Positions 10,596 to 21,399 are shown, counted from the first letter of the stretch. The stretch: 64,000 nucleotides of DNA from Escherichia coli (GCF_001677475.2 NZ_CP015229.1), one strand, 5' to 3'. Made by a program: numbers and translations. The notes: generated by a model not told the origin, from the sequence alone.

Positions 10596-11048
10596 TTAAT
10601 GCAGCCAATGAACGCCCTCGGCAGGCTGAAAGAACGCGTTATAGCGCATCTGAAAAGCATTAATATCCTGCATTTCAGGTTCGGTTTCGCGCAGAAAACC
10701 CAGCGCCAGCCTGACCTGAGCATCGGTAATCGGCGCGGCAAGGCGGGCTTTTTGTAAAATCCGATGCCATTGCAGCAGGTTCTGTTCGCTACCATCGACA
10801 ATGACAATTTGCCAGATGAGCAACACCTGCGCGGCGTTTTGCAGGTGCGACTCATCCGGGCGATGCAAATAACGTAAAAATTCGTCACCGGCTGACTTTC
10901 CCATTTGATCGACCATCGACTCCACGGGTACGACATCGATGTTCAGCCGATCGCTGAGACGGCGAATCGCTTTTCTGGCCCCGGATGTCAGCACCCGAAA
11001 ACCAATCACAAACACTACCGCCAGCGTGGCGAGCATTATCCAGATCAT
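10596..11048 (-). CDS. yicN: DUF1198-family small membrane-anchored protein YicN (copy 1)
   Basis: 150-aa product from MIWIMLATLAVVF; N-terminal TM helix; position between nepI and adeQ. Confidence 0.75.
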   Translation of the reverse strand: MIWIMLATLAVVFVIGFRVLTSGARKAIRRLSDRLNIDVVPVESMVDQMGKSAGDEFLRYLHRPDESHLQNAAQVLLIWQIVIVDGSEQNLLQWHRILQKARLAAPITDAQVRLALGFLRETEPEMQDINAFQMRYNAFFQPAEGVHWLH

Positions 11049-11100
11049 GAGTTCTCCTGCGTAATCAGAACTCATGATATCTGGAAACCCTCGCCAGTTA

Positions 11101-12435
11101 CTAATCCACCAGAATAATCTTCAGTGCAAACAGAGCTGCGACCACCACCACACACAGGTTCAGATCGCGCCAGCGCCCGGTGCATACTTTCATGATGCAG
11201 TACGACATAAAGCCGAGTGCAATCCCTTCGGTGATCGAAAAAGTAAAGGGCATCATCACCGTGGTAATAAATGCGGGCACCGATTCGGTAAAATCATCCC
11301 AGTTAACGCGCGCCAGGCTCGAAGTCATCAGCACGCCAACAAAGATTAACGCTCCAGCGGTTGCGTAAGGAGGAACCATCGCCACCAGCGGTGAGAAGAA
11401 CATAACCAACAGGAACATAACGCCAACCACAACCGCAGTCAGCCCCGTGCGACCACCGACTGCCACACCAGAAGTACTTTCAATATAGGCAGTAACAGAC
11501 GAGGTGCCGATAAACGCACCCGCCACCGAACTGACGCTATCAACATATAGCGCCTTATTCATATTGGGGAATTTACCGTTACTATCTATTAAGCCAGCTT
11601 TATCAGTTACACCAATTAATGTTCCTGATGAATCAAATAGGTTGATCAGCATAAAGGAGAAAATGATACCGGCGAGTTCAAGTGTTAACGCGCCGCTCAA
11701 ATCTACTTCACCAATGACGCCGCTAATATCAGGCGGAATGGAATAGACGCCGCTAAAATGAACATCACCGAAAAATAATCCGCAGCAGGAAGTGACGACG
11801 ATGGAAACCAGCACCGCGGCATGAAAATGACGTGATGACAATACGGTTATAATAAAAAAACCTAATATACCTAATAACACGCCGTGAGAGCTTAAATCGC
11901 CAATCATCACCAGGGTGTCTTTATTGGCGACAATAACGCCAGTGTTTTTTAATCCCATTAAGGCAATAAATAATCCGATTCCACTGGTGATACCAATACG
12001 TAAACTTAAGGGAATGTTGGAGATCATCCAGTACCGGATACGAAACAGCGTGAGCAAAAATAGCCCAATTGCGCCCCAGAATATCGCGCCCATCCCGGTC
12101 TGCCAGGAGATACCCATCGCCCCCACGACCACGAACGCAAAGAAGGCGTTCAGCCCCATTGCCGGAGCCAGCGCCACGGGTAAGTTAGCAAATATCCCCA
12201 TCGCAATACTGCCGATACCGGCAATCAAACAGGTGGTAACAAACACCACTTTCGGGTCCATTTGTGCCGCGCCGAGGATTTGCGGGTTCACAAAAACGAT
12301 GTACACCATGGTTAAAAAAGTGGTCATCCCCGCAATCAATTCTGTGCGGACGGTGGTCCCATGCTGAGGTAGTTTAAATAATCGCGAAAGCGTCCCTGAT
12401 TCATTACTCACGTAATCGGTATTGTCATTATTCAT
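11101..12435 (-). CDS. adeQ: Adenine permease (NCS2/AzgA family)
   Basis: 444-aa polytopic transporter; start at MNNDNTDYVSNESG inside the longer ORF; divergent from adeD. Confidence 0.85.
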   Translation of the reverse strand: MNNDNTDYVSNESGTLSRLFKLPQHGTTVRTELIAGMTTFLTMVYIVFVNPQILGAAQMDPKVVFVTTCLIAGIGSIAMGIFANLPVALAPAMGLNAFFAFVVVGAMGISWQTGMGAIFWGAIGLFLLTLFRIRYWMISNIPLSLRIGITSGIGLFIALMGLKNTGVIVANKDTLVMIGDLSSHGVLLGILGFFIITVLSSRHFHAAVLVSIVVTSCCGLFFGDVHFSGVYSIPPDISGVIGEVDLSGALTLELAGIIFSFMLINLFDSSGTLIGVTDKAGLIDSNGKFPNMNKALYVDSVSSVAGAFIGTSSVTAYIESTSGVAVGGRTGLTAVVVGVMFLLVMFFSPLVAMVPPYATAGALIFVGVLMTSSLARVNWDDFTESVPAFITTVMMPFTFSITEGIALGFMSYCIMKVCTGRWRDLNLCVVVVAALFALKIILVD

Positions 12436-12609
12436 TTTTTTGTCCATTGGAGGAGATTTAATCCCTTGCTTTTGTAAAACAAATGACAACAACGGTTCAG
12501 TGATAATTATCACATTTCAATTGCGCATTAATGGATATTCTTTAATAATCTCGCGACGTTTCTTTATGATAAATAATAATCAAATTGATAAAATCAAAAT
12601 GAGAAAAAT

Positions 12610-14376
12610 ATGAATAATTCTATTAACCATAAATTTCATCACATTAGCCGGGCTGAATACCAGGAATTGTTAGCCGTTTCCCGTGGCGACGCTGTTGCCG
12701 ATTATATTATTGATAATGTCTCTATTCTCGACCTGATCAATGGCGGAGAAATTTCCGGCCCAATTGTGATTAAAGGACGTTACATTGCCGGTGTTGGCGC
12801 AGAATACACTGATGCTCCGGCTTTGCAGCGGATTGATGCCCGCGGCGCAACGGCGGTGCCAGGGTTTATTGATGCTCACCTGCATATTGAATCCAGCATG
12901 ATGACGCCGGTCACCTTTGAAACCGCTACCCTGCCGCGCGGCCTGACGACCGTTATTTGCGACCCTCATGAAATCGTCAACGTGATGGGCGAAGCCGGAT
13001 TCGCCTGGTTTGCCCGCTGTGCCGAACAGGCAAGGCAAAACCAGTACTTACAGGTCAGCTCTTGCGTACCCGCCCTGGAAGGCTGCGATGTTAACGGTGC
13101 CAGTTTTACCCTTGAACAGATGCTCGCCTGGCGGGACCATCCGCAGGTTACCGGCCTTGCAGAAATGATGGACTACCCTGGCGTAATTAGCGGGCAGAAT
13201 GCGCTGCTCGATAAACTGGATGCATTTCGCCACCTGACGCTGGACGGTCACTGCCCGGGTTTGGGTGGTAAAGAACTTAACGCCTATATTGCTGCGGGTA
13301 TTGAAAACTGCCACGAAAGTTATCAGCTGGAAGAAGGACGCCGGAAATTACAACTCGGTATGTCGTTGATGATCCGCGAAGGGTCCGCTGCCCGCAATCT
13401 CAACGCTCTGGCACCGTTGATCAACGAATTTAACAGCCCGCAATGCATGCTCTGTACCGATGACCGTAACCCGTGGGAGATCGCCCATGAAGGACACATC
13501 GATGCCTTAATTCGCCGCCTGATCGAACAACACAATGTGCCGCTGCATGTGGCATATCGCGTCGCCAGCTGGTCGACGGCGCGCCATTTTGGTCTGAATC
13601 ACCTCGGCTTACTGGCACCCGGCAAGCAGGCCGATATCGTCCTGTTGAGCGATGCGCGTAAGGTCACGGTGCAGCAGGTACTGGTGAAAGGCGAGCCGAT
13701 TGATGCGCAAACCTTACAGGCGGAAGAGTCGGCGAGACTGGCACAATCCGCTCCGCCGTATGGCAATACCATTGCCCGCCAGCCCGTTTCCGCCAGCGAC
13801 TTTGCCCTGCAATTCACGCCCGGAAAACGCTATCGGGTCATTGACGTCATCCATAACGAATTGATTACGCACTCCCGCTCCAGCGTCTATAGCGAAAATG
13901 GTTTTGATCGCGATGATGTGTGCTTTATTGCCGTACTTGAGCGTTACGGGCAACGGCTGGCTCCGGCCTGTGGTTTGCTCGGCGGCTTTGGCCTGAATGA
14001 AGGTGCGCTGGCTGCGACGGTCAGCCATGACAGCCATAATATTGTGGTGATCGGTCGCAGTGCGGAAGAGATGGCGCTGGCGGTCAATCAGGTGATTCAG
14101 GATGGCGGCGGGCTGTGCGTGGTACGTAACGGCCAGGTACAAAGTCATCTGCCGTTACCAATTGCAGGGCTGATGAGCACCGACACGGCGCAGTCGCTGG
14201 CGGAGCAAATTGACGCCTTGAAAGCCGCCGCCCGTGAATGCGGTCCGTTACCCGATGAGCCGTTTATTCAGATGGCGTTTCTTTCCCTGCCAGTGATCCC
14301 CGCGCTGAAACTAACCAGCCAGGGGCTGTTTGATGGCGAGAAGTTTGCCTTCACCACGCTGGAAGTCACGGAATGA
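12610..14376 (+). CDS. adeD: Adenine deaminase
   Basis: 588-aa amidohydrolase with metal-binding HxH motif ([13 protein letters not shown]). Confidence 0.9.
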
Positions 14377-14568
14377 AAAAAAGACCGTATTAGCTGATTT
14401 ACGGAAAATATGTACTCCACAAGCGTCAATATCAGACGAGGCCTGGGAAAAGATGATGTTGTCTGATGAAAGTAATCAGCAGCACATCCGTGAGGCTATT
14501 GTGGCGATGGAACGCAATAACCAGAAAAATTACTGGGAAGCGTTAGGCAAGGTTGAATGCCCGGATAT

Positions 14569-14598
14569 GTAGACGTGAAGCCGCAGCTTCACGTCTAC
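14569..14598. terminator. Perfect 13-bp stem / 4-nt loop palindrome between convergent adeD-side and LacI-family genes
   Basis: gtagacgtgaagc-cgca-gcttcacgtctac; no strong U-tract, so terminator function is uncertain. Confidence 0.35.
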
Positions 14599-14607
14599 AT
14601 TTAGCAC

Positions 14608-15567
14608 TTAACGTGAACGTATATCGGGAATAATTAAATCACCACGCAGAACATATGAACCCAGCATCGTCTGTGTCTTCTCGTTAAGCCAACTGACTAT
14701 CCGGGCGGCCATTTCGTCCAGCGAATACTCTATCGCCGGAATGGTCGGTATCCCCGGAAGATGAACAGTACCCGCCAGACTAAATACCATAATGTCCTCA
14801 GGAACAGATTTATTAAACGCCTGCAATTGCGGTATCACCCGCTGCGCTTGCTGTTCATCAGCAACTAATAACGCATTAAAGTTCAGTGTTGAGGCGTTAT
14901 TTAGCAGCTCCTGCAAAGCCACTGAGGAAGATATTGCTTCCATAAAAACCAGATTACGGTTAAAGGGAAGAAAGTTTTTCTCCAGCGCGTGTTTATAGCC
15001 CAGTAAGACCTGGTCAGAAAATCCCATACCGTGTGGGTGGATGAGGGCGATTTGTCGTCTGTTCTGACTTATCAGATAGTTACAAGCGGTTTCAGTCGCG
15101 AATGTGTGATCGAACTGAATACTGTTAACATCATTACCCGTCTCAAGGCAGTCCACCAGTATCACGTTTTCCTGATGAATATTCAGTGGGAAACGCGCAC
15201 CAATAATCAGTACGTCATCACACAAACCACAGCTCAGCTCATCAAGGGCGTTCTTTACCTCGGCTTTATTGCTGGCGAAGCGAAGAAGTAGATGTTTTTG
15301 ATGCTGGCTGAGATGTTTTTCCAGAGCGTAAAGATAACCGGTGGTCTGATTAATGTTTTCCTGAGCACAAATTACACCGATACAGCCCGTAGATTGCGTC
15401 AGCAGTGACTGCGCAATGACATTGGGACGATAGTTTAGCTCTTCGACGGCTTTCAATACCGCGAGACGGCTGGCTTCTTTAACACCACGCGATCCGCTCA
15501 ACACCCGAGAAACCGTCGCTTTTGAAACGCCAGCCAAACGCGATACATCATTGATAGTAGACATCAT
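14608..15567 (-). CDS. LacI-family transcriptional regulator (probable repressor of the adjacent beta-glucoside PTS operon)
   Basis: N-terminal HTH MSTINDVSRLAGVSKATVSRVLSG; periplasmic-binding-protein-like effector domain; divergent from the PTS operon. Confidence 0.8.
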   Translation of the reverse strand: MMSTINDVSRLAGVSKATVSRVLSGSRGVKEASRLAVLKAVEELNYRPNVIAQSLLTQSTGCIGVICAQENINQTTGYLYALEKHLSQHQKHLLLRFASNKAEVKNALDELSCGLCDDVLIIGARFPLNIHQENVILVDCLETGNDVNSIQFDHTFATETACNYLISQNRRQIALIHPHGMGFSDQVLLGYKHALEKNFLPFNRNLVFMEAISSSVALQELLNNASTLNFNALLVADEQQAQRVIPQLQAFNKSVPEDIMVFSLAGTVHLPGIPTIPAIEYSLDEMAARIVSWLNEKTQTMLGSYVLRGDLIIPDIRSR

Positions 15568-15855
15568 TCTCCCCTGACAGAGCGGCCCTGGCTCCCACAA
15601 TCCTGAATTCCTGTTGGCTTAAATATTAGCCATTCGCAGTATAACTGTTTCCGTTTTTTAATGGAAACCGATTTTCCATGACACCTCAAAACTGAGCTAA
15701 TAATGATAAAGATGTGAACAGAATCGAAATATTAACGCGACTTTATAGCGAAATCGGATAGCCGTCACAGTTTGTGTTTCCATGAATGGAAACCGGTTTC
15801 CAAATGATATCAAATCAATTGCGAAATAGATTTTTACATTCAGAGGATGTGTCAG

Positions 15856-16170
15856 ATGGTCAGGATTATGTTGTGTTGCTCTGCGGGGATGTCAACCAGT
15901 CTGCTGGTGAAAAAAATGGTCGAGGCCGCAGAAAGCAGAGAGCTACCGGTAGAGATAGATGCCTACGGAGTTTCCGAATTTGATATTCAGTTTCCAAAAT
16001 ATCAGGTGGTGCTACTCGGACCGCAGGTAAAGTATATGTTAAACATGCTCGCAGAAAAGGCCGCCCCCCAGGGAATACCCGTAAAAGCCATTGATATGGC
16101 GGACTACGGAATGCAACGGGGTGACAAGGTGCTGGATTACGCTCTGTCGCTCATTGCAGCGACACATTAG
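15856..16170 (+). CDS. PTS EIIB component, lactose/cellobiose family
   Basis: MVRIMLCCSAGMSTSLLV with active-site Cys motif; GAGGA RBS about 8 nt upstream. Confidence 0.8.
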   Translation: MVRIMLCCSAGMSTSLLVKKMVEAAESRELPVEIDAYGVSEFDIQFPKYQVVLLGPQVKYMLNMLAEKAAPQGIPVKAIDMADYGMQRGDKVLDYALSLIAATH

Positions 16171-16182
16171 AAAGGTGTCATT

Positions 16183-17514
16183 ATGAGTTCGTTATATCAA
16201 TCAATGGTTGCCGTTATTGAACAATCCATCACACCGCTTGCCGGGAAGCTGGGGCAGCAAAAATATGTGATTGCCATCCGGGACGGTTTTACTGCCGCTC
16301 TACCGTTTATGATCATCGGTTCGTTTATGCTGGTGTTCATTTTCCCACCGTTTTCGGCTGAAACAACCAACAGTTTTGCCCGAGGCTGGCTGGATTTCTC
16401 CGCCACCTACCGTGAACAGCTAATGTTGCCATTTAACCTCAGTATGGGAGTGATGACTTTCTTCATCTCAGTAGGAATCGGTGCCAGCCTTGGGCGACAG
16501 TTTAATCTCGATCCGATTATGTCTGGCTTGCTGGCATTTATGGCATTTTTACTGGTCGCAGCGCCTTACGCTGACGGCAAGATATCGACTCAATATCTTT
16601 CCGGGCAAGGTATTTTCACGTCGCTGATTACTGCGATTTATGCCACTCGTGTGTACGCCTGGTTAAAACAACACAACGTGACAATCCGCTTACCCAAAGA
16701 AGTCCCTACTGGGGTGGCGCGTTCCTTTGAGATCCTTATCCCGGTTCTGGTGGTCATTGCTACGCTACACCCACTGAATCTGTTTATTGAGGCCCAGACT
16801 GGAATGATTATTCCTGAGGCGATCATGCATCTTTTAGCGCCACTGGTCTCTGCCTCTGATTCCCTGCCTGCAATTCTGCTGTCTGTTCTGATGTGTCAGA
16901 TTTTCTGGTTCGCAGGTATTCATGGTTCACTGATTGTAACCGGCATCATGAATCCCTTCTGGATGGCAAACCTGTCGGCAAATCAGGCAGCTCTTGCCGC
17001 TGGCGCAGCACTTCCTCACGTTTATCTGCAAGGTTTTTGGGATCACTACCTGCTGATTGGTGGTGTCGGCTCGACGCTACCGCTGGCGTTCTTGCTGTTA
17101 CGCAGTCGCGTTGCTCACTTGCGCACCATCGGAAAAATGGGCGTTGTCCCCAGTTTTTTCAACATTAATGAGCCTATTCTGTTCGGTGCGCCGATCATCA
17201 TGAATCCGATGTTGTTTATCCCGTTCGTTTTCGTGCCAATTATTAACGCCATCCTGGCCTATACCGCGACCAGACTGGGCTGGCTGGCACAGGTTGTCTC
17301 ATTAACGCCATGGACCACACCTGCTCCAATTGGTGCCTCCTGGGCTGCCAACTGGGCACTTAGCCCGGTAGTGATGTGCATTATCTGTATGGTGATGTCG
17401 GCGCTGATGTACCTCCCATTCTTGCGCGCCTATGAACGCTCATTGCTAAAAAGCGAAGAACAAAAAGCGCAGGATACCGTCTCCGTGGCCAATGCAGCCC
17501 GTAGCAACTCATAA
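16183..17514 (+). CDS. PTS EIIC component, lactose/cellobiose family
   Basis: 443-aa polytopic membrane protein directly following EIIB. Confidence 0.8.
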   Translation: MSSLYQSMVAVIEQSITPLAGKLGQQKYVIAIRDGFTAALPFMIIGSFMLVFIFPPFSAETTNSFARGWLDFSATYREQLMLPFNLSMGVMTFFISVGIGASLGRQFNLDPIMSGLLAFMAFLLVAAPYADGKISTQYLSGQGIFTSLITAIYATRVYAWLKQHNVTIRLPKEVPTGVARSFEILIPVLVVIATLHPLNLFIEAQTGMIIPEAIMHLLAPLVSASDSLPAILLSVLMCQIFWFAGIHGSLIVTGIMNPFWMANLSANQAALAAGAALPHVYLQGFWDHYLLIGGVGSTLPLAFLLLRSRVAHLRTIGKMGVVPSFFNINEPILFGAPIIMNPMLFIPFVFVPIINAILAYTATRLGWLAQVVSLTPWTTPAPIGASWAANWALSPVVMCIICMVMSALMYLPFLRAYERSLLKSEEQKAQDTVSVANAARSNS

Positions 17515-17534
17515 TGAATCAAGGAGTAAGAACA

Positions 17535-18932
17535 ATGAGATACCGTTTTCCCGACAACTTCTGGTGGGGTAGTGCCTGCTCTGCGCTGCAAACCGAAGGG
17601 GATAGTCTGAACGGCGGCAAAAGCCAAACCACCTGGGATGTATGGTTCGAGCGCCAGCCAGGCCGCTTCCATCAAGGTATTGGCCCGGCGAACACATCAA
17701 CCTTTTATCAACACTGGCAACAAGATATTGCCCTGCTGAAACAGTTAAAACATAACAGTTTTCGCACCTCGTTAAGCTGGTCTCGCCTGATACCAGACGG
17801 TACTGGTGACGTAAATCCTGAAGCGGTGGCGTTCTATAACAATGTCATCGACGAGCTGCTGGCGCAGGGCATCACACCGTTTATCACCTTGTTCCACTTT
17901 GATATGCCGATGGTGATGCAGGAAAAAGGTGGCTGGGAGAGTCGTGAAGTCGTAGAAGCTTTTGGTGAATATGCCCGTACCTGCTTTGAACTGTTCGGCA
18001 ACAGAGTGAAGCACTGGTTTACCTTTAACGAACCGATTGTGCCGGTAGAGGGCGGTTATTTATATGACTTCCACTATCCGAACGTTGTTGATTTTAAACG
18101 TGCTGCGACAGTGGCTTACCATACCGTTCTTGCGCACGCCACGGCAGTTCGGGCATTTCGCCGCGGTAATTTCGAAGGTGAAATTGGCGTGGTGCTCAAC
18201 CTGACGCCTTCTTATCCGCGCTCGCAAAATCCGGCTGATGTTAAAGCCGCACACTGCGCTGACCTTCTGTTTAACCGCAGCTTCCTCGATCCGGTGCTAA
18301 AAGGAGAATACCCGGCAGACCTTGTAGCATTACTGAAAGAGTACGATCAGTTGCCGCAATGCCAGCCTGACGATAGTCAGCTAATCGCCGACGGAAAAAT
18401 CGACCTGCTGGGGATAAATTATTATCAACCCCGTCGAGTTAAATGCCGGGATAGCGCCGTAAACCCCAATGCTCCCTTTATGCCGGAGTGGTTATTTGAC
18501 TATTACGAGATGCCTGGGCGAAAAATGAATCCTTATCGGGGATGGGAAATTTATGAACCCGGTATTTACGATATCATCACCAATCTTCGCGATAATTATG
18601 GTAATCCTCGTTGTTTTATTTCTGAAAATGGGATGGGTGTAGAAAACGAGCAACGTTTTATTCAGGAAGGGCAAGTCAACGATAGCTATCGTATTGAATT
18701 TGTCGCTGAACATTTAAAATGGCTGCATAAAGGAATTAGCGAAGGGTGTAATTGCCTTGGCTATCATATGTGGACGTTTATCGATAACTGGTCATGGCTT
18801 AATGCTTATAAAAATCGCTATGGATTTGTTCAGCTTGATCTGGAAACGCAAACACGCACGATTAAAAAAAGTGGTGAGTGGTTTGCGACAGTTGCAGAAA
18901 ATAACGGTTTTGATTGCGAGAAACAAAAATGA
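17535..18932 (+). CDS. 6-phospho-beta-glucosidase (glycoside hydrolase family 1)
   Basis: FPDNFWWGSACSALQTEGD, TFNEP and ENG motifs typical of GH1; AAGGAG RBS 8 nt upstream of ATG at 17535. Confidence 0.85.
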   Translation: MRYRFPDNFWWGSACSALQTEGDSLNGGKSQTTWDVWFERQPGRFHQGIGPANTSTFYQHWQQDIALLKQLKHNSFRTSLSWSRLIPDGTGDVNPEAVAFYNNVIDELLAQGITPFITLFHFDMPMVMQEKGGWESREVVEAFGEYARTCFELFGNRVKHWFTFNEPIVPVEGGYLYDFHYPNVVDFKRAATVAYHTVLAHATAVRAFRRGNFEGEIGVVLNLTPSYPRSQNPADVKAAHCADLLFNRSFLDPVLKGEYPADLVALLKEYDQLPQCQPDDSQLIADGKIDLLGINYYQPRRVKCRDSAVNPNAPFMPEWLFDYYEMPGRKMNPYRGWEIYEPGIYDIITNLRDNYGNPRCFISENGMGVENEQRFIQEGQVNDSYRIEFVAEHLKWLHKGISEGCNCLGYHMWTFIDNWSWLNAYKNRYGFVQLDLETQTRTIKKSGEWFATVAENNGFDCEKQK

Positions 18933-19231
18933 TCGAACTAGAAGATGCTGTTATGGAAATAATCGTCAATGCCGGCCAGTCACGCAGCCTCTGTTTTGAA
19001 GCGTTACACGCGGCACGTGCCGGGAACTTTGATGAAGCCAAACAGCTGCTACATGAAGCTGACGGTTATTCGCGTCAGGCTCACCATATGCAAACCAAAT
19101 TGATCGAACAGGATGCTGGTGAGGCCCGTCAGCCAATGACATTAATTATGGTACATGCACAGGATCATTTAATGACATCGATGCTGGCACGAGAATTAGC
19201 AGAAGAAATAATTCATCTTTATCAAAGATAA
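18929..19231 (+). CDS. PTS EIIA component, lactose/cellobiose family
   Basis: ~100-aa helical protein; ATGA start/stop overlap with the GH1 gene. Confidence 0.7.
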   Translation: MIELEDAVMEIIVNAGQSRSLCFEALHAARAGNFDEAKQLLHEADGYSRQAHHMQTKLIEQDAGEARQPMTLIMVHAQDHLMTSMLARELAEEIIHLYQR

Positions 19232-19432
19232 TTAATTAATGCTTAGTGAGGAACATCTATTTGATAAAATAAAACCCCTGCTTTACCCAAGAATAAAATA
19301 GATAAACCACCCTGTTTCGGCAGTTAAAAACAAACCGAAACAGGCTGCTTATTATCATAAAACAAATTAATACACACCTTATATTTATTATGCCTAACGC
19401 ATAATGAATTATAACGTGTGCGTGAGATAATT

Positions 19433-20812
19433 ATGAAAAAGATAAATACACTTCCAGTTACCCTAGCGGTTATTGCCGCTTTGTACTCAATATCTGCCCA
19501 AGCTCAGGAATTTACTCAGGAACAAATAGACGCCATTGTGGCAAAAGCCGTCGATAAAGCATTAGCCGAAAGGCAAGAAAAAATGGATGCCGCGGCAGCG
19601 AAAAAAGTGGATGTTATTAACGAACCGGAAAGTGCTGCGCAGTCTCCGGATATGGCAATTCCCTTTGGCGTAAAATTTAGTGGTTATGCCCGTTATGGGG
19701 CTCACTTTCAAAGCGGCGATCAAAAATATGTTGCTGTAGACGGCTCCTATAATGGTGCATCTGCAATTGGTCGTCTGGGGAACGAAGGTAACGGCGGAGA
19801 GTTTCAGTTATCAAAAGCCTTCAAGAGCGATAACGGCGCAATCTGGGATGTCAATGTCATGATTGATCACTGGGGCGACGAAGTTAACCTGAAAAAAGCC
19901 TACGCTGGTGTCACCAATGTTTTGGCATCCAATCCTGACGCCTATATCTGGGCTGGTCGTGACTTCCACCAGCGCCCGCAACAGGGCATTAATGACTACT
20001 TCTGGATGACTCACGATGGTCAGGGTGCCGGGGTGAAAAATTTCGACATTGGTGGCATCAAGTTTGACCTTGCTACTGTCGCAGCGGTTGAATCCTGTAA
20101 TCCTGAAGTGATGGAGGATGAGACCAATCCGTCACGCATTACCTGTACTGGCGGGTCAGGAACGGGCGACAAAGGCAATTATGCGGTAACGTCCAAAATC
20201 CATGGTATGAAACTGGGGCCACTGGATCTTGAGTTGTACGCTAACTACGGCTTCGACTCAAAAGCGGTCGAAGGTGAAGACAAACTGAAAGCCTGGCAGG
20301 GGGCATTTGTTGTAAGCCATAGCAATGACAGCGGAGTGAATAAAGTCATTGCCCGCTACTCTGATAATTCCGATAACAGTGTTTACAATAAAACTGACGA
20401 TCTCACGACAATTTACGCCAGTTTTGAAGGTAGTCATAAATTTACCCAGCAGGCGCAAATCGAGTATTTACTGGCCTTCCATGATTACGACAACAGTTCT
20501 ATTAAGAGTGATAACCGCAAAAACTATGGCGTAATTGTCCGTCCTATGTATTTCTGGAATGACGTTCACTCCACCTGGCTTGAGGCGGGTTATCAACGGG
20601 TTGATTATGATAAAGGCGGAGATAATTCCGGCTGGAAGCTGACGCTGTCACAGAACATTTCTATTGCGATGGGCCCGGAATTCCGCCCAATGCTACGTTT
20701 CTACATGACGGGCGGGCAAGTTGATAATGACCGGACTGCACGCGTCAACGGTACAAAAGAGGAAACGCTTGACGACTTTAACCTTGGCGCGATGTGGGAA
20801 GCCTGGTTCTGA
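19433..20812 (+). CDS. Carbohydrate-specific outer-membrane porin (LamB/BglH-like)
   Basis: Signal peptide MKKINTLPVTLAVIAALYSISAQA; beta-barrel-like sequence ending in aromatic WEAWF. Confidence 0.7.
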   Translation: MKKINTLPVTLAVIAALYSISAQAQEFTQEQIDAIVAKAVDKALAERQEKMDAAAAKKVDVINEPESAAQSPDMAIPFGVKFSGYARYGAHFQSGDQKYVAVDGSYNGASAIGRLGNEGNGGEFQLSKAFKSDNGAIWDVNVMIDHWGDEVNLKKAYAGVTNVLASNPDAYIWAGRDFHQRPQQGINDYFWMTHDGQGAGVKNFDIGGIKFDLATVAAVESCNPEVMEDETNPSRITCTGGSGTGDKGNYAVTSKIHGMKLGPLDLELYANYGFDSKAVEGEDKLKAWQGAFVVSHSNDSGVNKVIARYSDNSDNSVYNKTDDLTTIYASFEGSHKFTQQAQIEYLLAFHDYDNSSIKSDNRKNYGVIVRPMYFWNDVHSTWLEAGYQRVDYDKGGDNSGWKLTLSQNISIAMGPEFRPMLRFYMTGGQVDNDRTARVNGTKEETLDDFNLGAMWEAWF

Positions 20813-20830
20813 CAGGCCACTCACATTGAG

Positions 20831-21283
20831 TTAATGCAACCAAAACACGCCTTCTTCTGGCTGGAAGAGGGCGTTATAGCGCATTTGGAAGGCATTAATC
20901 TCCTGCATATCTGGCTCTAACTCACGGAGAAAACCCAGCGCCAGACGGACCTGGGCATCAGTGATCGGCGCAGCAAGACGCGCTTTTTGCAACAACCGAT
21001 GCCAACGTAACAGGTTCTGCTCACTACCATCGACAATCACAATTTGCCAGATAAGTAACACCTGAGCAGCATTTTGCAGATGAGATTCATCCGGGCGATG
21101 CAAATAATACAAAAACTCTTTACCAGGCATTTTACCCATCTGATCGATCATCGATTCTACGGGTACAACATCAATATTAAGTCGTTCGCTTAAACGGCGA
21201 ATCGCCCGTCGGGTGCCTGACGTCAGAACCCGAAAACCAACCACAAACACCACCACGACGGTGGCAAGCATTATCCAGATCAT
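20831..21283 (-). CDS. DUF1198-family protein, second yicN paralogue (copy 2)
   Basis: 150 aa, roughly 85-90% identical by eye to copy 1 at 10596..11048 (about 19 substitutions); similarity extends into the flanks. Confidence 0.75.
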   Translation of the reverse strand: MIWIMLATVVVVFVVGFRVLTSGTRRAIRRLSERLNIDVVPVESMIDQMGKMPGKEFLYYLHRPDESHLQNAAQVLLIWQIVIVDGSEQNLLRWHRLLQKARLAAPITDAQVRLALGFLRELEPDMQEINAFQMRYNALFQPEEGVFWLH

Positions 21284-21355
21284 GCGTTCTCCTGCGCATC
21301 AACTTTTGATGATATCTGGAAAACTCCCCCAGGCGTTAATCTGGTCAAATTGAAT

Positions 21356-21386
21356 AAAAAAAGCCCGGCGTCATGCCGGGCAAAAG
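21356..21386 (-). terminator. Rho-independent terminator downstream of uhpT
   Basis: Hairpin gcccggcatgacgccgggc followed by a T-run on the minus strand. Confidence 0.6.
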
Positions 21387-21399
21387 TCACCAGTTACGT

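Follow-up and report, generated by a model that had tools for sequence, protein, structure and literature searches.

A rare putative beta-glucoside-type sugar operon and a second yicN between adeD and uhpT in Escherichia coli: probable one-time gain by one-sided illegitimate recombination

Three sugar systems of Escherichia coli come closest to the operon described here. The chb operon has a phosphotransferase system (PTS) of the lactose/cellobiose family with IIB, IIC and IIA components; bgl has the GH1 enzyme BglB and the LamB-type porin BglH; and asc has the LacI-type repressor AscG. The bgl operon has reportedly had a variable evolutionary fate, as described in one study. Foreign genes can be added to a chromosome by homology-facilitated illegitimate recombination (HFIR), a process that relies on RecA and an anchor sequence. 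One study is said to have called on it to explain additive gene arrays in Vibrio cholerae. In E. coli it has been measured in conjugation, and clones without homology at the new junction have been reported (PMC3240628). The other gene of concern here is yicN. Its product is a membrane protein with one span, whose function is not known and which is found together with SecYEG on purification (PMC8082313), and the family, DUF1198, comprises proteins of about 15-17 kDa with a single N-terminal membrane-spanning segment (membrane description: PMC8082313).

The window, by which we mean the whole stretch of 64,000 nucleotides of E. coli DNA that was analysed, holds an operon that shares something with all three sugar systems: the PTS IIB/IIC/IIA type with chb, a GH1 enzyme and LamB-type porin with bgl, and a LacI-type repressor with asc. 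Its combination is nevertheless unlike that of chb/cel, bgl or asc, and its chromosomal location is different. The operon's LacI-family regulator (14608..15564, minus strand; PF00356 and PF13377, NCBIfam LacI subfamily below cut-off) is followed on the plus strand, at 15862..19231, by genes of the lactose/cellobiose family for IIB (15862-16170), IIC (16183-17514), a GH1 glycosidase (17535-18932) and IIA (18929-19231), and then by a LamB-family carbohydrate porin (19433..20812, plus strand; PF02264 at 249 bits and annotation). PF02302, PF02378, PF00232 and PF02255 were found in the IIB/IIC/GH1/IIA segment, as separate components of a Lac/Cel-family PTS. IIC matches TIGR00410 at 367 bits (cut-off 236); the glycosidase matches PF00232 at 445 bits but reaches no NCBIfam equivalog or subfamily cut-off (BGL comes highest, at 417 against 478.5). 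The operon most likely imports and cleaves a disaccharide of the beta-glucoside or cellobiose type.

This 'island' and the yicN beside it form a single insert of 6,977 bp, 14375-21351, running from the adeD stop codon to the uhpT terminator. The empty site of K-12-type genomes reads ...ACGGAAT|AAT-AAAAAAAGCCCGG; the window has the same bases, parted by the 6,977-bp insert, and no recipient base was lost at insertion. Island-free genomes match only the 48-nt terminator piece (21352..21399), at 100%. This piece consists of GAAT and the uhpT/adeD bidirectional terminator (hairpin at 21363-21381 by terminator scan), is conserved across genera, and coincides in its start with the right boundary of the insert. 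Beyond it, uhpT (21400..22791, minus strand) is an ordinary E. coli allele without donor tract.

The left joint (14372..14376) can be read against both of its parents. The recipient runs ...ACGGAAT|A(AT)AAAAAAAGCCC, the donor-type yicS, found in a genome we call L018, runs ...CGGCAAAT|GAAAAAAAGACCG, and the product is ...ACGGAAT|GAAAAAAAGACCG, with recipient bases up to ...ACGGAAT (14374) and donor bases from the G at 14375. The microhomology is 3-4 nt (AAT/GAAT, with AAT common to both parents), inside 22 nt that are about 77% similar. The joint fuses the adeD stop codon to codon ~34 of yicS, and adeD (adenine deaminase; 12610..14376, plus strand) consequently ends in TGA, not TAA, its last two bases coming from the insert and its protein unchanged; 14375-14376 are the only fixed differences between island-bearing and island-free genomes in the final 700 nt of adeD. 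At its left end the insert thus has a donor yicS reduced to its C-terminal two-thirds, and at its right end a donor yicN with its own leader. The yicS piece, yicS' (14378..14572, plus strand), comprises 64 C-terminal codons and the stop, of donor type, without start codon or signal peptide. It is 98.4% identical at the amino acid level to the C-terminus of the full-length 97-aa YicS in L018, 81% identical to the resident-type yicS, and annotated in relatives as a partial YicS-family pseudogene.

ORF, Pfam and NCBIfam searches found no integrase, transposase or phage genes among the ORFs of the insert (14375-21351), all of which are assigned to yicS', lacI, IIB, IIC, GH1, IIA, porin or yicN. 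Nor did a repeat scan find terminal direct or inverted repeats at the insert beyond a 4-nt GAAT at both ends. The target is a spacer between protein genes, not a tRNA, and the insert has a GC content of 0.42-0.51, its flanks one of 0.44-0.57.

The two yicN genes are intact ORFs, exactly where the initial annotation had placed them: copy 1 at 10596..11048 and copy 2 at 20831..21283, both on the minus strand and so in direct orientation, 10,235 nt apart by a repeat scan of the window, with copy 2 indeed lying between the porin gene and uhpT. Each encodes a full-length, 150-aa DUF1198 protein (PF06711; 240.9 bits for copy 1 and 247.0 for copy 2, cut-off 25) covering profile positions 1-142/143. 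Each begins with MIWIMLAT(L/V)(A/V)VVFV(I/V)GF, a hydrophobic stretch that, read by inspection, fits a single N-terminal membrane span; in length and N-terminus both resemble K-12 YicN. Aligned in the same register, the coding sequences are 79.9% identical (91 mismatches in 453 nt). The earlier count of about 19 differing positions was correct, with 19 replacement codons, and a further 55 codons differ only synonymously, which indicates that purifying selection still acts on both copies. Similarity had also been claimed for both flanks, and this is true of one of them: it extends upstream of the ATG for about 58 nt, to ~11106 and ~21341 (69% identity in that stretch), but not past the stop codons at 10596 and 20831, and outside these limits identity is at a background of 20-45%. 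The homologous leader includes GCAGGAGAAC, a ribosome-binding site, and TTTCCAGATATCAT in both copies. In copy 1 the leader and spacer occupy 11049..11100 (minus strand), up to the stop codon of adeQ (adenine permease; 11101..12435, minus strand; PF00860 and annotation). In copy 2 the leader is of donor type (21284..21351, minus strand) and fully conserved (100%) in every carrier examined; the 17 nt farthest from the gene (about 21335-21351) may be the scar of a deleted adeQ-adeD pair, a candidate of ~17-20 nt that aligns only with two indels. Between nepI and copy 1 sits a pair encoding a RelE/ParE-type toxin and an HTH antitoxin (9814..10480, plus strand; ORFs and best-match annotation, with NCBIfam MqsA-family/HTH matches below cut-off). 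It belongs to the resident neighbourhood, is strain-variable, and is missing in K-12-type matches (query coverage from 722).

Copy 1 is the resident E. coli allele ('K-type'), nested inside the Escherichia yicN clade and 98% identical in nucleotides to K-12 yicN. Copy 2 is the donor-type allele ('D-type'): its nt 1-375 are 78-81% identical to every Escherichia and Citrobacter yicN compared, and its last 75 nt ~96% identical to the yicN of the clade to which L018 belongs. A neighbour-joining tree gives an Escherichia yicN clade that excludes copy 2 with 100% bootstrap and has copy 2 as its sister with 87%. Set against YicN of K-12, copy 2 differs at 19 residues, at most of which it has the Citrobacter or Salmonella state, the Escherichia allele being derived. 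We considered in-genome paralogues arising by local duplication and rejected them: the copies are not closest relatives, and copy 2 falls outside the Escherichia clade. To judge from sequence and surroundings, the two yicN are xenologues, two lineages' alleles of a single locus, because copy 2 is the donor neighbourhood's own yicN, matched by the truncated donor yicS at the other end of the insert.

Among 5,426 complete E. coli genomes the full island is present in 25, with 24 at adeD|uhpT and one ectopic (LH50-c); two further genomes have IS1-truncated remnants, and the insert is missing from about 99.5%. The island is strain-variable, as this ~0.5% shows, and the divergent source that the initial annotation proposed is borne out by the position of copy 2 outside the Escherichia yicN clade. 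The left breakpoint is identical in 25 of 25, beside adeD or an adeD fragment, and the event was accordingly a one-time event; the right end is also covered in the 24 adeD|uhpT carriers. The ectopic second copy in LH50-c has 183 nt of adeD attached, with the same left joint, and so is a copy taken from a carrier chromosome, not an element that moved. All other Escherichia species examined have a clean adeD-stop|terminator site. Other insertions are known in the adeD|uhpT spacer, IS200C in SCU-109 for example.

Elsewhere the genes of the insert are at home. Of 80 species representatives, 24 have the order yicS-lacI-IIB-IIC-GH1-IIA-porin-nepI-yicN, and they span at least 10 enterobacterial genera; in many representatives yicN directly adjoins uhpT. 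The genes, order and orientation in Citrobacter sp. MGH106 (L021), Enterobacter hormaechei (L040), Leclercia, Kosakonia and Lelliottia match those of the insert, and the proteins are 77-95% identical to the window's; the locus is bounded by yicS and yicN, with uhpT beyond yicN. In those genera it is single-copy, with nepI between porin and yicN and a full-length yicS, whereas the window has a truncated second copy, after adeD and without nepI.

The native arrangement is also found in a divergent Escherichia clade (L018, labelled E. coli SCPM-O-B-8794, and L091-L100, two complete chromosomes included). This clade, which L018, CP057162.1 and CP057688.1 represent, carries the unbroken parent of the left joint, a full-length yicS-operon-yicN, in the ancestral position yicL-yicS-operon-yicN-adeQ-adeD-uhpT. 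In the stretch corresponding to yicS', in the operon and over the final 75 nt of yicN, identity to the insert is 95-98.5%, and porin and yicN meet at the same junction, while the core flanks match E. coli at only 92-95%. The clade has a single yicN whose 5' 375 nt are of copy 1 type, a naturally occurring crossover of the two allele types within this gene, and as sampled the clade is therefore not the direct donor. Scaled to the distance to Citrobacter, E. coli and this clade are separated by 0.05-0.25 in island genes and 0.27-0.33 in core genes; the island genes are relatively closer, which points to recent sharing by later transfer. No complete donor haplotype (full yicS, operon and full copy 2-type yicN beside uhpT) came up in a search of species representatives, an exact-protein index and one metagenome scan.

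Our preferred reading, to which we would give a probability of roughly 70%, is that 14375-21351 is a second, divergent version of the enterobacterial yicS-[sugar operon]-yicN neighbourhood, added once to the right of the resident version (yicS ... nepI-yicN-adeQ-adeD) by one-sided illegitimate recombination of the HFIR kind. On the left, the joint to the adeD stop codon would have been illegitimate; on the right, the exchange would have been completed in sequence that donor and recipient share (remnant adeD stop, uhpT terminator, uhpT), since yicN presumably adjoined uhpT directly in the donor haplotype. The usual E. coli haplotype would have lost the sugar operon and the donor haplotype nepI, so that a carrier again has every gene of the ancestral set, along with a redundant yicN. 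A SNP comparison found no residual donor tract in uhpT or the 3' end of adeD in carriers; the right-hand homologous crossover is thus one we only infer, and it would have to lie within ~50 nt of the terminator or have been erased by later recombination. Reverse polarity, a resident-type segment entering a donor-type E. coli, gives an identical final structure.

The same donor segment could instead have been inserted by illegitimate joining at both ends, with the match between right end and terminator fortuitous or owed to the 4-nt GAAT. GAAT at both ends of the insert suits this, as do a uhpT without donor tract and a spacer that accepts other insertions (IS200C in SCU-109), but it requires two independent illegitimate joints that together lost no recipient base, and a right boundary falling exactly where cross-genus conservation starts, as if the donor yicN already stood beside uhpT; we consider it unlikely. 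An ancient tandem duplication in the Escherichia stem, from mid-yicS to the adeD stop, would make the copies old paralogues after reciprocal loss, the left unit losing the operon and the right unit nepI and adeQ-adeD. An adeD end fused to mid-yicS has the form of a duplication junction, a possible adeQ/adeD remnant lies right of copy 2, and copy 2 as sister to all Escherichia yicN is the topology of a stem duplication. Yet the clean site in the other Escherichia examined and in ~99.5% of E. coli would demand a polymorphism kept through several speciations, and recombination between the two yicN cannot restore the K-12 type, as it would also delete adeQ-adeD. Nor do the units look to be from one genome (yicN 79.9% and yicS' 81% identical to the resident type), and island genes closer than core genes between E. 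coli and the L018 clade speak for later transfer. A full-length yicS of the same type also exists, a weak point since yicS is highly variable. All told, we find duplication quite improbable.

The initial annotation saw the yicN pair as bracketing adeQ-adeD and the island, and proposed that the island came in by homologous replacement from a divergent donor and that the direct repeat is a substrate for deletion or amplification; in such a model yicN would serve as the recombination arm. The divergent source stands, and the L018 clade documents a crossover of the two allele types within yicN. The remainder is highly unlikely, and the junction sequences already contradict it: no recipient sequence was replaced, and the bases of the empty site are intact; the insert, 14375-21351, lies 3.3 kb from copy 1, past the resident adeQ-adeD; its left end is a broken yicS, not yicN; and copy 2 is cargo of the insert instead of a recombination arm. 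The repeat is a weak substrate for deletion or amplification (longest identical run 21 nt, at ~79% identity). None of the 5,426 genomes has the deletion hybrid, copy 2's 5' part minus the porin, none shows amplification of the yicN-bracketed interval, and the sole candidate for a repeat-driven deletion, H30, is an IS1 deletion. A genomic island moved by integrase, transposase or phage into the adeD|uhpT spacer might account for the sporadic distribution (0.5%), the ectopic second copy in LH50-c and a slightly low GC (0.42-0.51). It is already contradicted by the gene content, which includes none of those functions, by ends that are gene fragments without terminal repeats beyond 4 nt, and by the LH50-c copy, which with its 183 nt of adeD and the same joint came from a carrier chromosome; we put its chances close to nil.

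On the preferred reading of a one-sided addition, a bolder proposal can be made, which we hold tentatively and at somewhat below even odds. The insert would stem from a 'ghost': a lineage, Escherichia-like and unsampled, older than the split between E. coli and E. albertii, whose yicS-operon-yicN haplotype survives only piecemeal, as introgressions in ~0.5% of E. coli and a single cryptic Escherichia clade. What the window preserves would then be a natural joint of the one-sided illegitimate (HFIR-type) kind, both parents identifiable, that restored an ancestral sugar operon lost by E. coli.

The gain of copy 2 is a well documented but fairly ordinary case of gene gain, a known kind of event, and leaves current understanding unchallenged. 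It corrects an easy misreading: the 'paralogues' that seemed to bracket an island are two lineages' alleles of one locus, lying adjacent. It also offers a base-precise natural case of additive gene gain in E. coli without mobile-element machinery, with empty site and filled site both identified, together with an unbroken parent of the joint on the donor-type side. A beta-glucoside-type PTS operon that is ancestral at this position in Enterobacteriaceae would have been lost in mainstream E. coli and regained, rearranged, in rare strains. The common left joint can serve as a marker by which PCR or k-mer searches recognise this lineage of the locus, and the carriers are natural two-allele strains for the SecYEG-associated YicN.

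Set beside HFIR as described, the event in the window differs in being natural and old, inferred from sequence alone, with a homologous side that is not demonstrable. It is like HFIR in what it left behind: foreign DNA added to the resident genes, one joint with little or no homology, the other side presumably in common sequence, and no mobile-element functions.

The segment at 14375-21351 of the window, which we call the island, is a divergent allele of the neighbourhood beside which it was inserted; the insertion is rare, non-mobile and of single origin. The two yicN genes are the visible sign of it. Both are minus-strand ORFs of 150 codons, and a profile search identifies each as a full-length DUF1198/YicN protein: copy 1, the resident gene, at 10596-11048 (PF06711, 241 bits against a cut-off of 25) and copy 2 at 20831-21283 (247 bits, cut-off 25). 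YicN, a membrane protein with a single span and no assigned function, has been co-purified with SecYEG (PMC8082313). As the initial annotation had it, the genes lie in direct orientation. They form a repeat with a spacing of 10,235 nt, and between them are adeQ, adeD and genes for a LacI-family regulator, for lactose/cellobiose-family PTS components IIB, IIC and IIA, for a GH1 glycosidase and for a porin of LamB type; uhpT comes next after copy 2. The sugar genes would make up a system for taking up and cleaving a beta-glucoside or a cellobiose-type sugar. In register, the two coding sequences are 79.9% identical, with 55 codons differing synonymously only and 19 by an amino-acid change, a balance that indicates purifying selection on both. 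Similarity had also been claimed for both flanks, and here only half of the claim stands. It continues upstream of the ATG for about 58 nt at 69% identity, spanning GCAGGAGAAC and TTTCCAGATATCAT, and then drops to background, but it begins precisely at the stop codons with nothing beyond them, so the flank homology is one-sided. No sigma-70 promoter of consensus type was predicted ahead of either copy, and Rfam gave zero matches in window 9500-23500.

What the island is becomes plain from its two ends and from other genera. Its first 195 nt encode, in frame, the last 64 residues of YicS (relatives carry the annotation of a truncated YicS-family pseudogene here), and its other end is yicN. The gene order in K-12 is nlpA-yicS-nepI-yicN-adeQ-adeD-uhpT, so at either end of the insert lies a homologue of a gene that borders the resident region. 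We searched with the copy 2 protein in a single genome for each bacterial species and then examined the 80 loci that came back, using the window proteins as probes. In 24 of the 80 species, spread over at least 10 genera (among them Citrobacter, Enterobacter, Leclercia, Kosakonia, Lelliottia, Phytobacter, Silvania, Pseudenterobacter, Huaxiibacter and Superficieibacter), the order is yicS-lacI-IIB-IIC-GH1-IIA-porin-nepI-yicN, followed by uhpT at once or with adeQ-adeD in between. It is therefore this "island" that natively fills the interval between yicS and yicN. The sugar operon has gone from mainstream E. coli, and the insert adds another version of that neighbourhood, without nepI. Within it we found no integrase, transposase or terminal repeat, and its GC content is unremarkable. 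The interval varies in other genera too. Several Citrobacter loci (L012, L014, L015, L019, L020, L022, L024, L027, L029, L030 and L034) have kept GH1 as the only gene between yicS and nepI, apparently a pared-down operon. Short adeQ 3' remnants lie upstream of yicN in L014, L015 and L075, evidence that other genera have repeatedly lost adeQ-adeD by deletion.

The resident region has its own peculiarities. The window starts inside iatC, a giant inverse-autotransporter gene (1 to about 8200, minus strand), and the closest complete genome (L085) has the ETT2-associated eip/eilA cluster plus iatC between resident yicS and nepI, so that the resident yicS-to-yicN interval is itself enlarged by about 18 kb here. 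Between nepI and copy 1, at 9814-10480, is a RelE/ParE-type toxin with an HTH (MqsA-like) antitoxin; some E. coli, such as O157:H7 and SCU-109, have this pair, and K-12-type genomes do not.

Across 5,426 complete E. coli genomes, the island sits between adeD and uhpT in 24 and elsewhere in one; two have cut-down remnants, of which one is bounded by IS1 according to its annotation. All others match only a 48-nt terminator piece, which means that adeD abuts uhpT in island-free genomes. The empty site of K-12-type genomes reads ...ACGGAAT-AAT-AAAAAAAGCCCGGCG. In the window, ...ACGGAAT meets GAAAAAAAGACCG... at the left joint, and ...CAAATTG meets AATAAAAAAAGCCCGGCG at the right, giving an insert of 6,977 bp. 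Not one recipient base is missing at the site, and the adeD stop codon, TAA before the insertion, became TGA. Where island-free strains have only one AAT at the empty site, as some do, GAAT borders the insert at both ends. The left breakpoint is identical in all 25 complete genomes with a full island, the donor-type match starting at the same base, next to adeD or, in the ectopic copy, to a 183-nt adeD fragment; the right end is likewise common to all 24 genomes with the insert between adeD and uhpT. The insertion was one event with a single origin. Carrier flanks are diverse, ordinary E. coli haplotypes and the island differs by about 1-1.5% between carriers, so the insertion is either old or has spread by recombination in its flanks. 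Across the region, two draft assemblies match the window at 100% identity. We found no published description of the island or of the arrangement in the literature.

Individual genomes add some colour. In E. coli LH50-c (L003, NZ_CP100500.1 921-928 kb, locus 5818-12437), the ectopic island lies among unrelated sugar genes. It keeps 183 nt of adeD with the identical adeD-yicS' joint (the prime denoting the yicS fragment), has the 3' half of the porin swapped for sequence about 70-75% identical, and is without yicN; the strain's own adeD-uhpT site is empty. In 14EC033 (L004, locus 4288-4985), IS1 is annotated as truncating the island porin, which is joined to tnaA, with copy 2 intact, and the partial match in CUWW06 resembles it. 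SCU-109 (L103, locus 4689-5147) has IS200C in the adeD-uhpT spacer, and together with the IS1 of 14EC033 this marks the small adeD-uhpT region as repeatedly rearranged. The annotation of E. coli O158:H23 CFIAFB20140388 (L001, locus 14032-14484) gives copy 2 an internal stop and lists it as a pseudogene; the window and the other carriers whose annotation was read have an intact gene. Further along, the uhpC-uhpT spacer (22792-23046) is 255 nt long against 137 nt in K-12. The extra 118 nt or so (about 22812-22930), in the uhpT promoter region, starts with TTCAAGCCGCAGG, ends with CCTGCAACTTGAA, is like a small intergenic repeat or MITE, and has no Rfam match. It is present in H1 and missing from two other carriers, and is thus unlinked to the island.

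A direct repeat around adeQ-adeD and the operon had been thought to drive deletion or amplification, an expectation the genomes do not bear out: among the 5,426, there is no hybrid, deleted or amplified form. The longest identical run between the copies is 21 nt at an overall identity of 79%. RecA-dependent exchange in E. coli is usually said to need at least about 23-27 bp to be efficient, which is more than that run, and divergence of this order strongly suppresses recombination. EC96 was considered as a product of deletion through the repeat and rejected; it has an IS1-mediated deletion ending inside copy 1. Over evolutionary time a crossover in yicN between the two allele types can occur, as a mosaic gene in the L018 clade, a divergent Escherichia clade with a single, unbroken locus, demonstrates.

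That clade also bears on the source. Its order, yicL-yicS (full length)-operon-yicN-adeQ-adeD-uhpT, is common to the whole lineage, including two complete 4.3-Mb chromosomes, and its core flanks share about 92-95% identity with E. coli. The C terminus of its YicS is 98% identical to the window fragment, and across the breakpoint its yicS runs from ...CGGCAAAT straight into GAAAAAAAGACCG; L018-type yicS is the unbroken parent of the left joint. Its yicN is copy 1-type over the 5' 375 nt (95.5%) and copy 2-type over the last 75 nt and the porin-side flank (96%). Directly 5' of this crossover, a 150-nt stretch (window 10746-10895) has 1 mismatch to E. coli, where other Escherichia species have 6-12, which hints at a short E. 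coli-derived conversion patch in a pattern too short to interpret. Over nt 1-375, copy 2 is 78-81% identical to Citrobacter yicN and to every Escherichia yicN compared (E. coli, E. albertii, E. whittamii and three further species). A neighbour-joining tree places it outside the Escherichia yicN clade (100% bootstrap) as its sister (87%), and its protein retains residues in common with Citrobacter and Salmonella where the Escherichia allele is derived. The complete donor haplotype turned up in no genome: species representatives had nothing above 91% amino-acid identity, an exact-protein look-up returned window-type contexts only, and a metagenome scan with the degenerate, copy 2-specific motif KMPGKEFLYYLH gave one contig, with the same segment. 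The proposal of homologous replacement from a divergent donor thus survives in its donor but not in its replacement, since the recipient lost no base.

Could both copies instead descend from an ancient tandem duplication on the Escherichia stem? The adeD-yicS' joint is shaped like a duplication junction and the yicN tree topology fits. What speaks against this origin is that the site is clean and empty in all other Escherichia species examined and in 99.5% of E. coli, and that collapse of a stabilised form to the K-12 type through the yicN repeat would delete adeQ-adeD too. The relative similarity of the island between lineages also points to later transfer: the distance between E. coli and the L018 clade, divided by that to Citrobacter, is 0.05-0.25 for island genes and 0.27-0.33 for core genes, which argues that the segment passed between Escherichia lineages after their split. 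The hypervariability of yicL and the 5' part of yicS across Escherichia makes them uninformative between duplication and a foreign haplotype.

For insertion of a divergent allele, the joints suggest a route. The left one has 3-4 nt of microhomology within a 22-nt patch, about 77% similar, between the adeD stop/terminator region and mid-yicS. The right boundary is the exact start, at the uhpT terminator, of sequence conserved in all genera, and the 17 nt before it resemble a degraded adeD 3' end and then the adeQ stop. This scar, weak evidence because the stretch is so short, suggests a donor haplotype that had lost adeQ-adeD, with yicN beside uhpT. Homologous exchange on the right is what we infer, in carriers whose uhpT has no donor-type tract and whose pairwise profiles are flat; a comparison of 6 carriers with 6 E. 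coli that lack the island, the divergent E69 among them, and with 4 further Escherichia showed no fixed differences beside the junctions except two stop-codon bases. Illegitimate insertion at both ends, or the reverse polarity, would leave the same final structure. In the route we propose, the left end of the donor fragment would have been joined illegitimately and the right end would have entered by ordinary homologous exchange. Such a combination is homology-facilitated illegitimate recombination, whose frequency in E. coli has been measured as about 3e-10 per recipient; clones without homology at the new junction are reported (PMC3240628).
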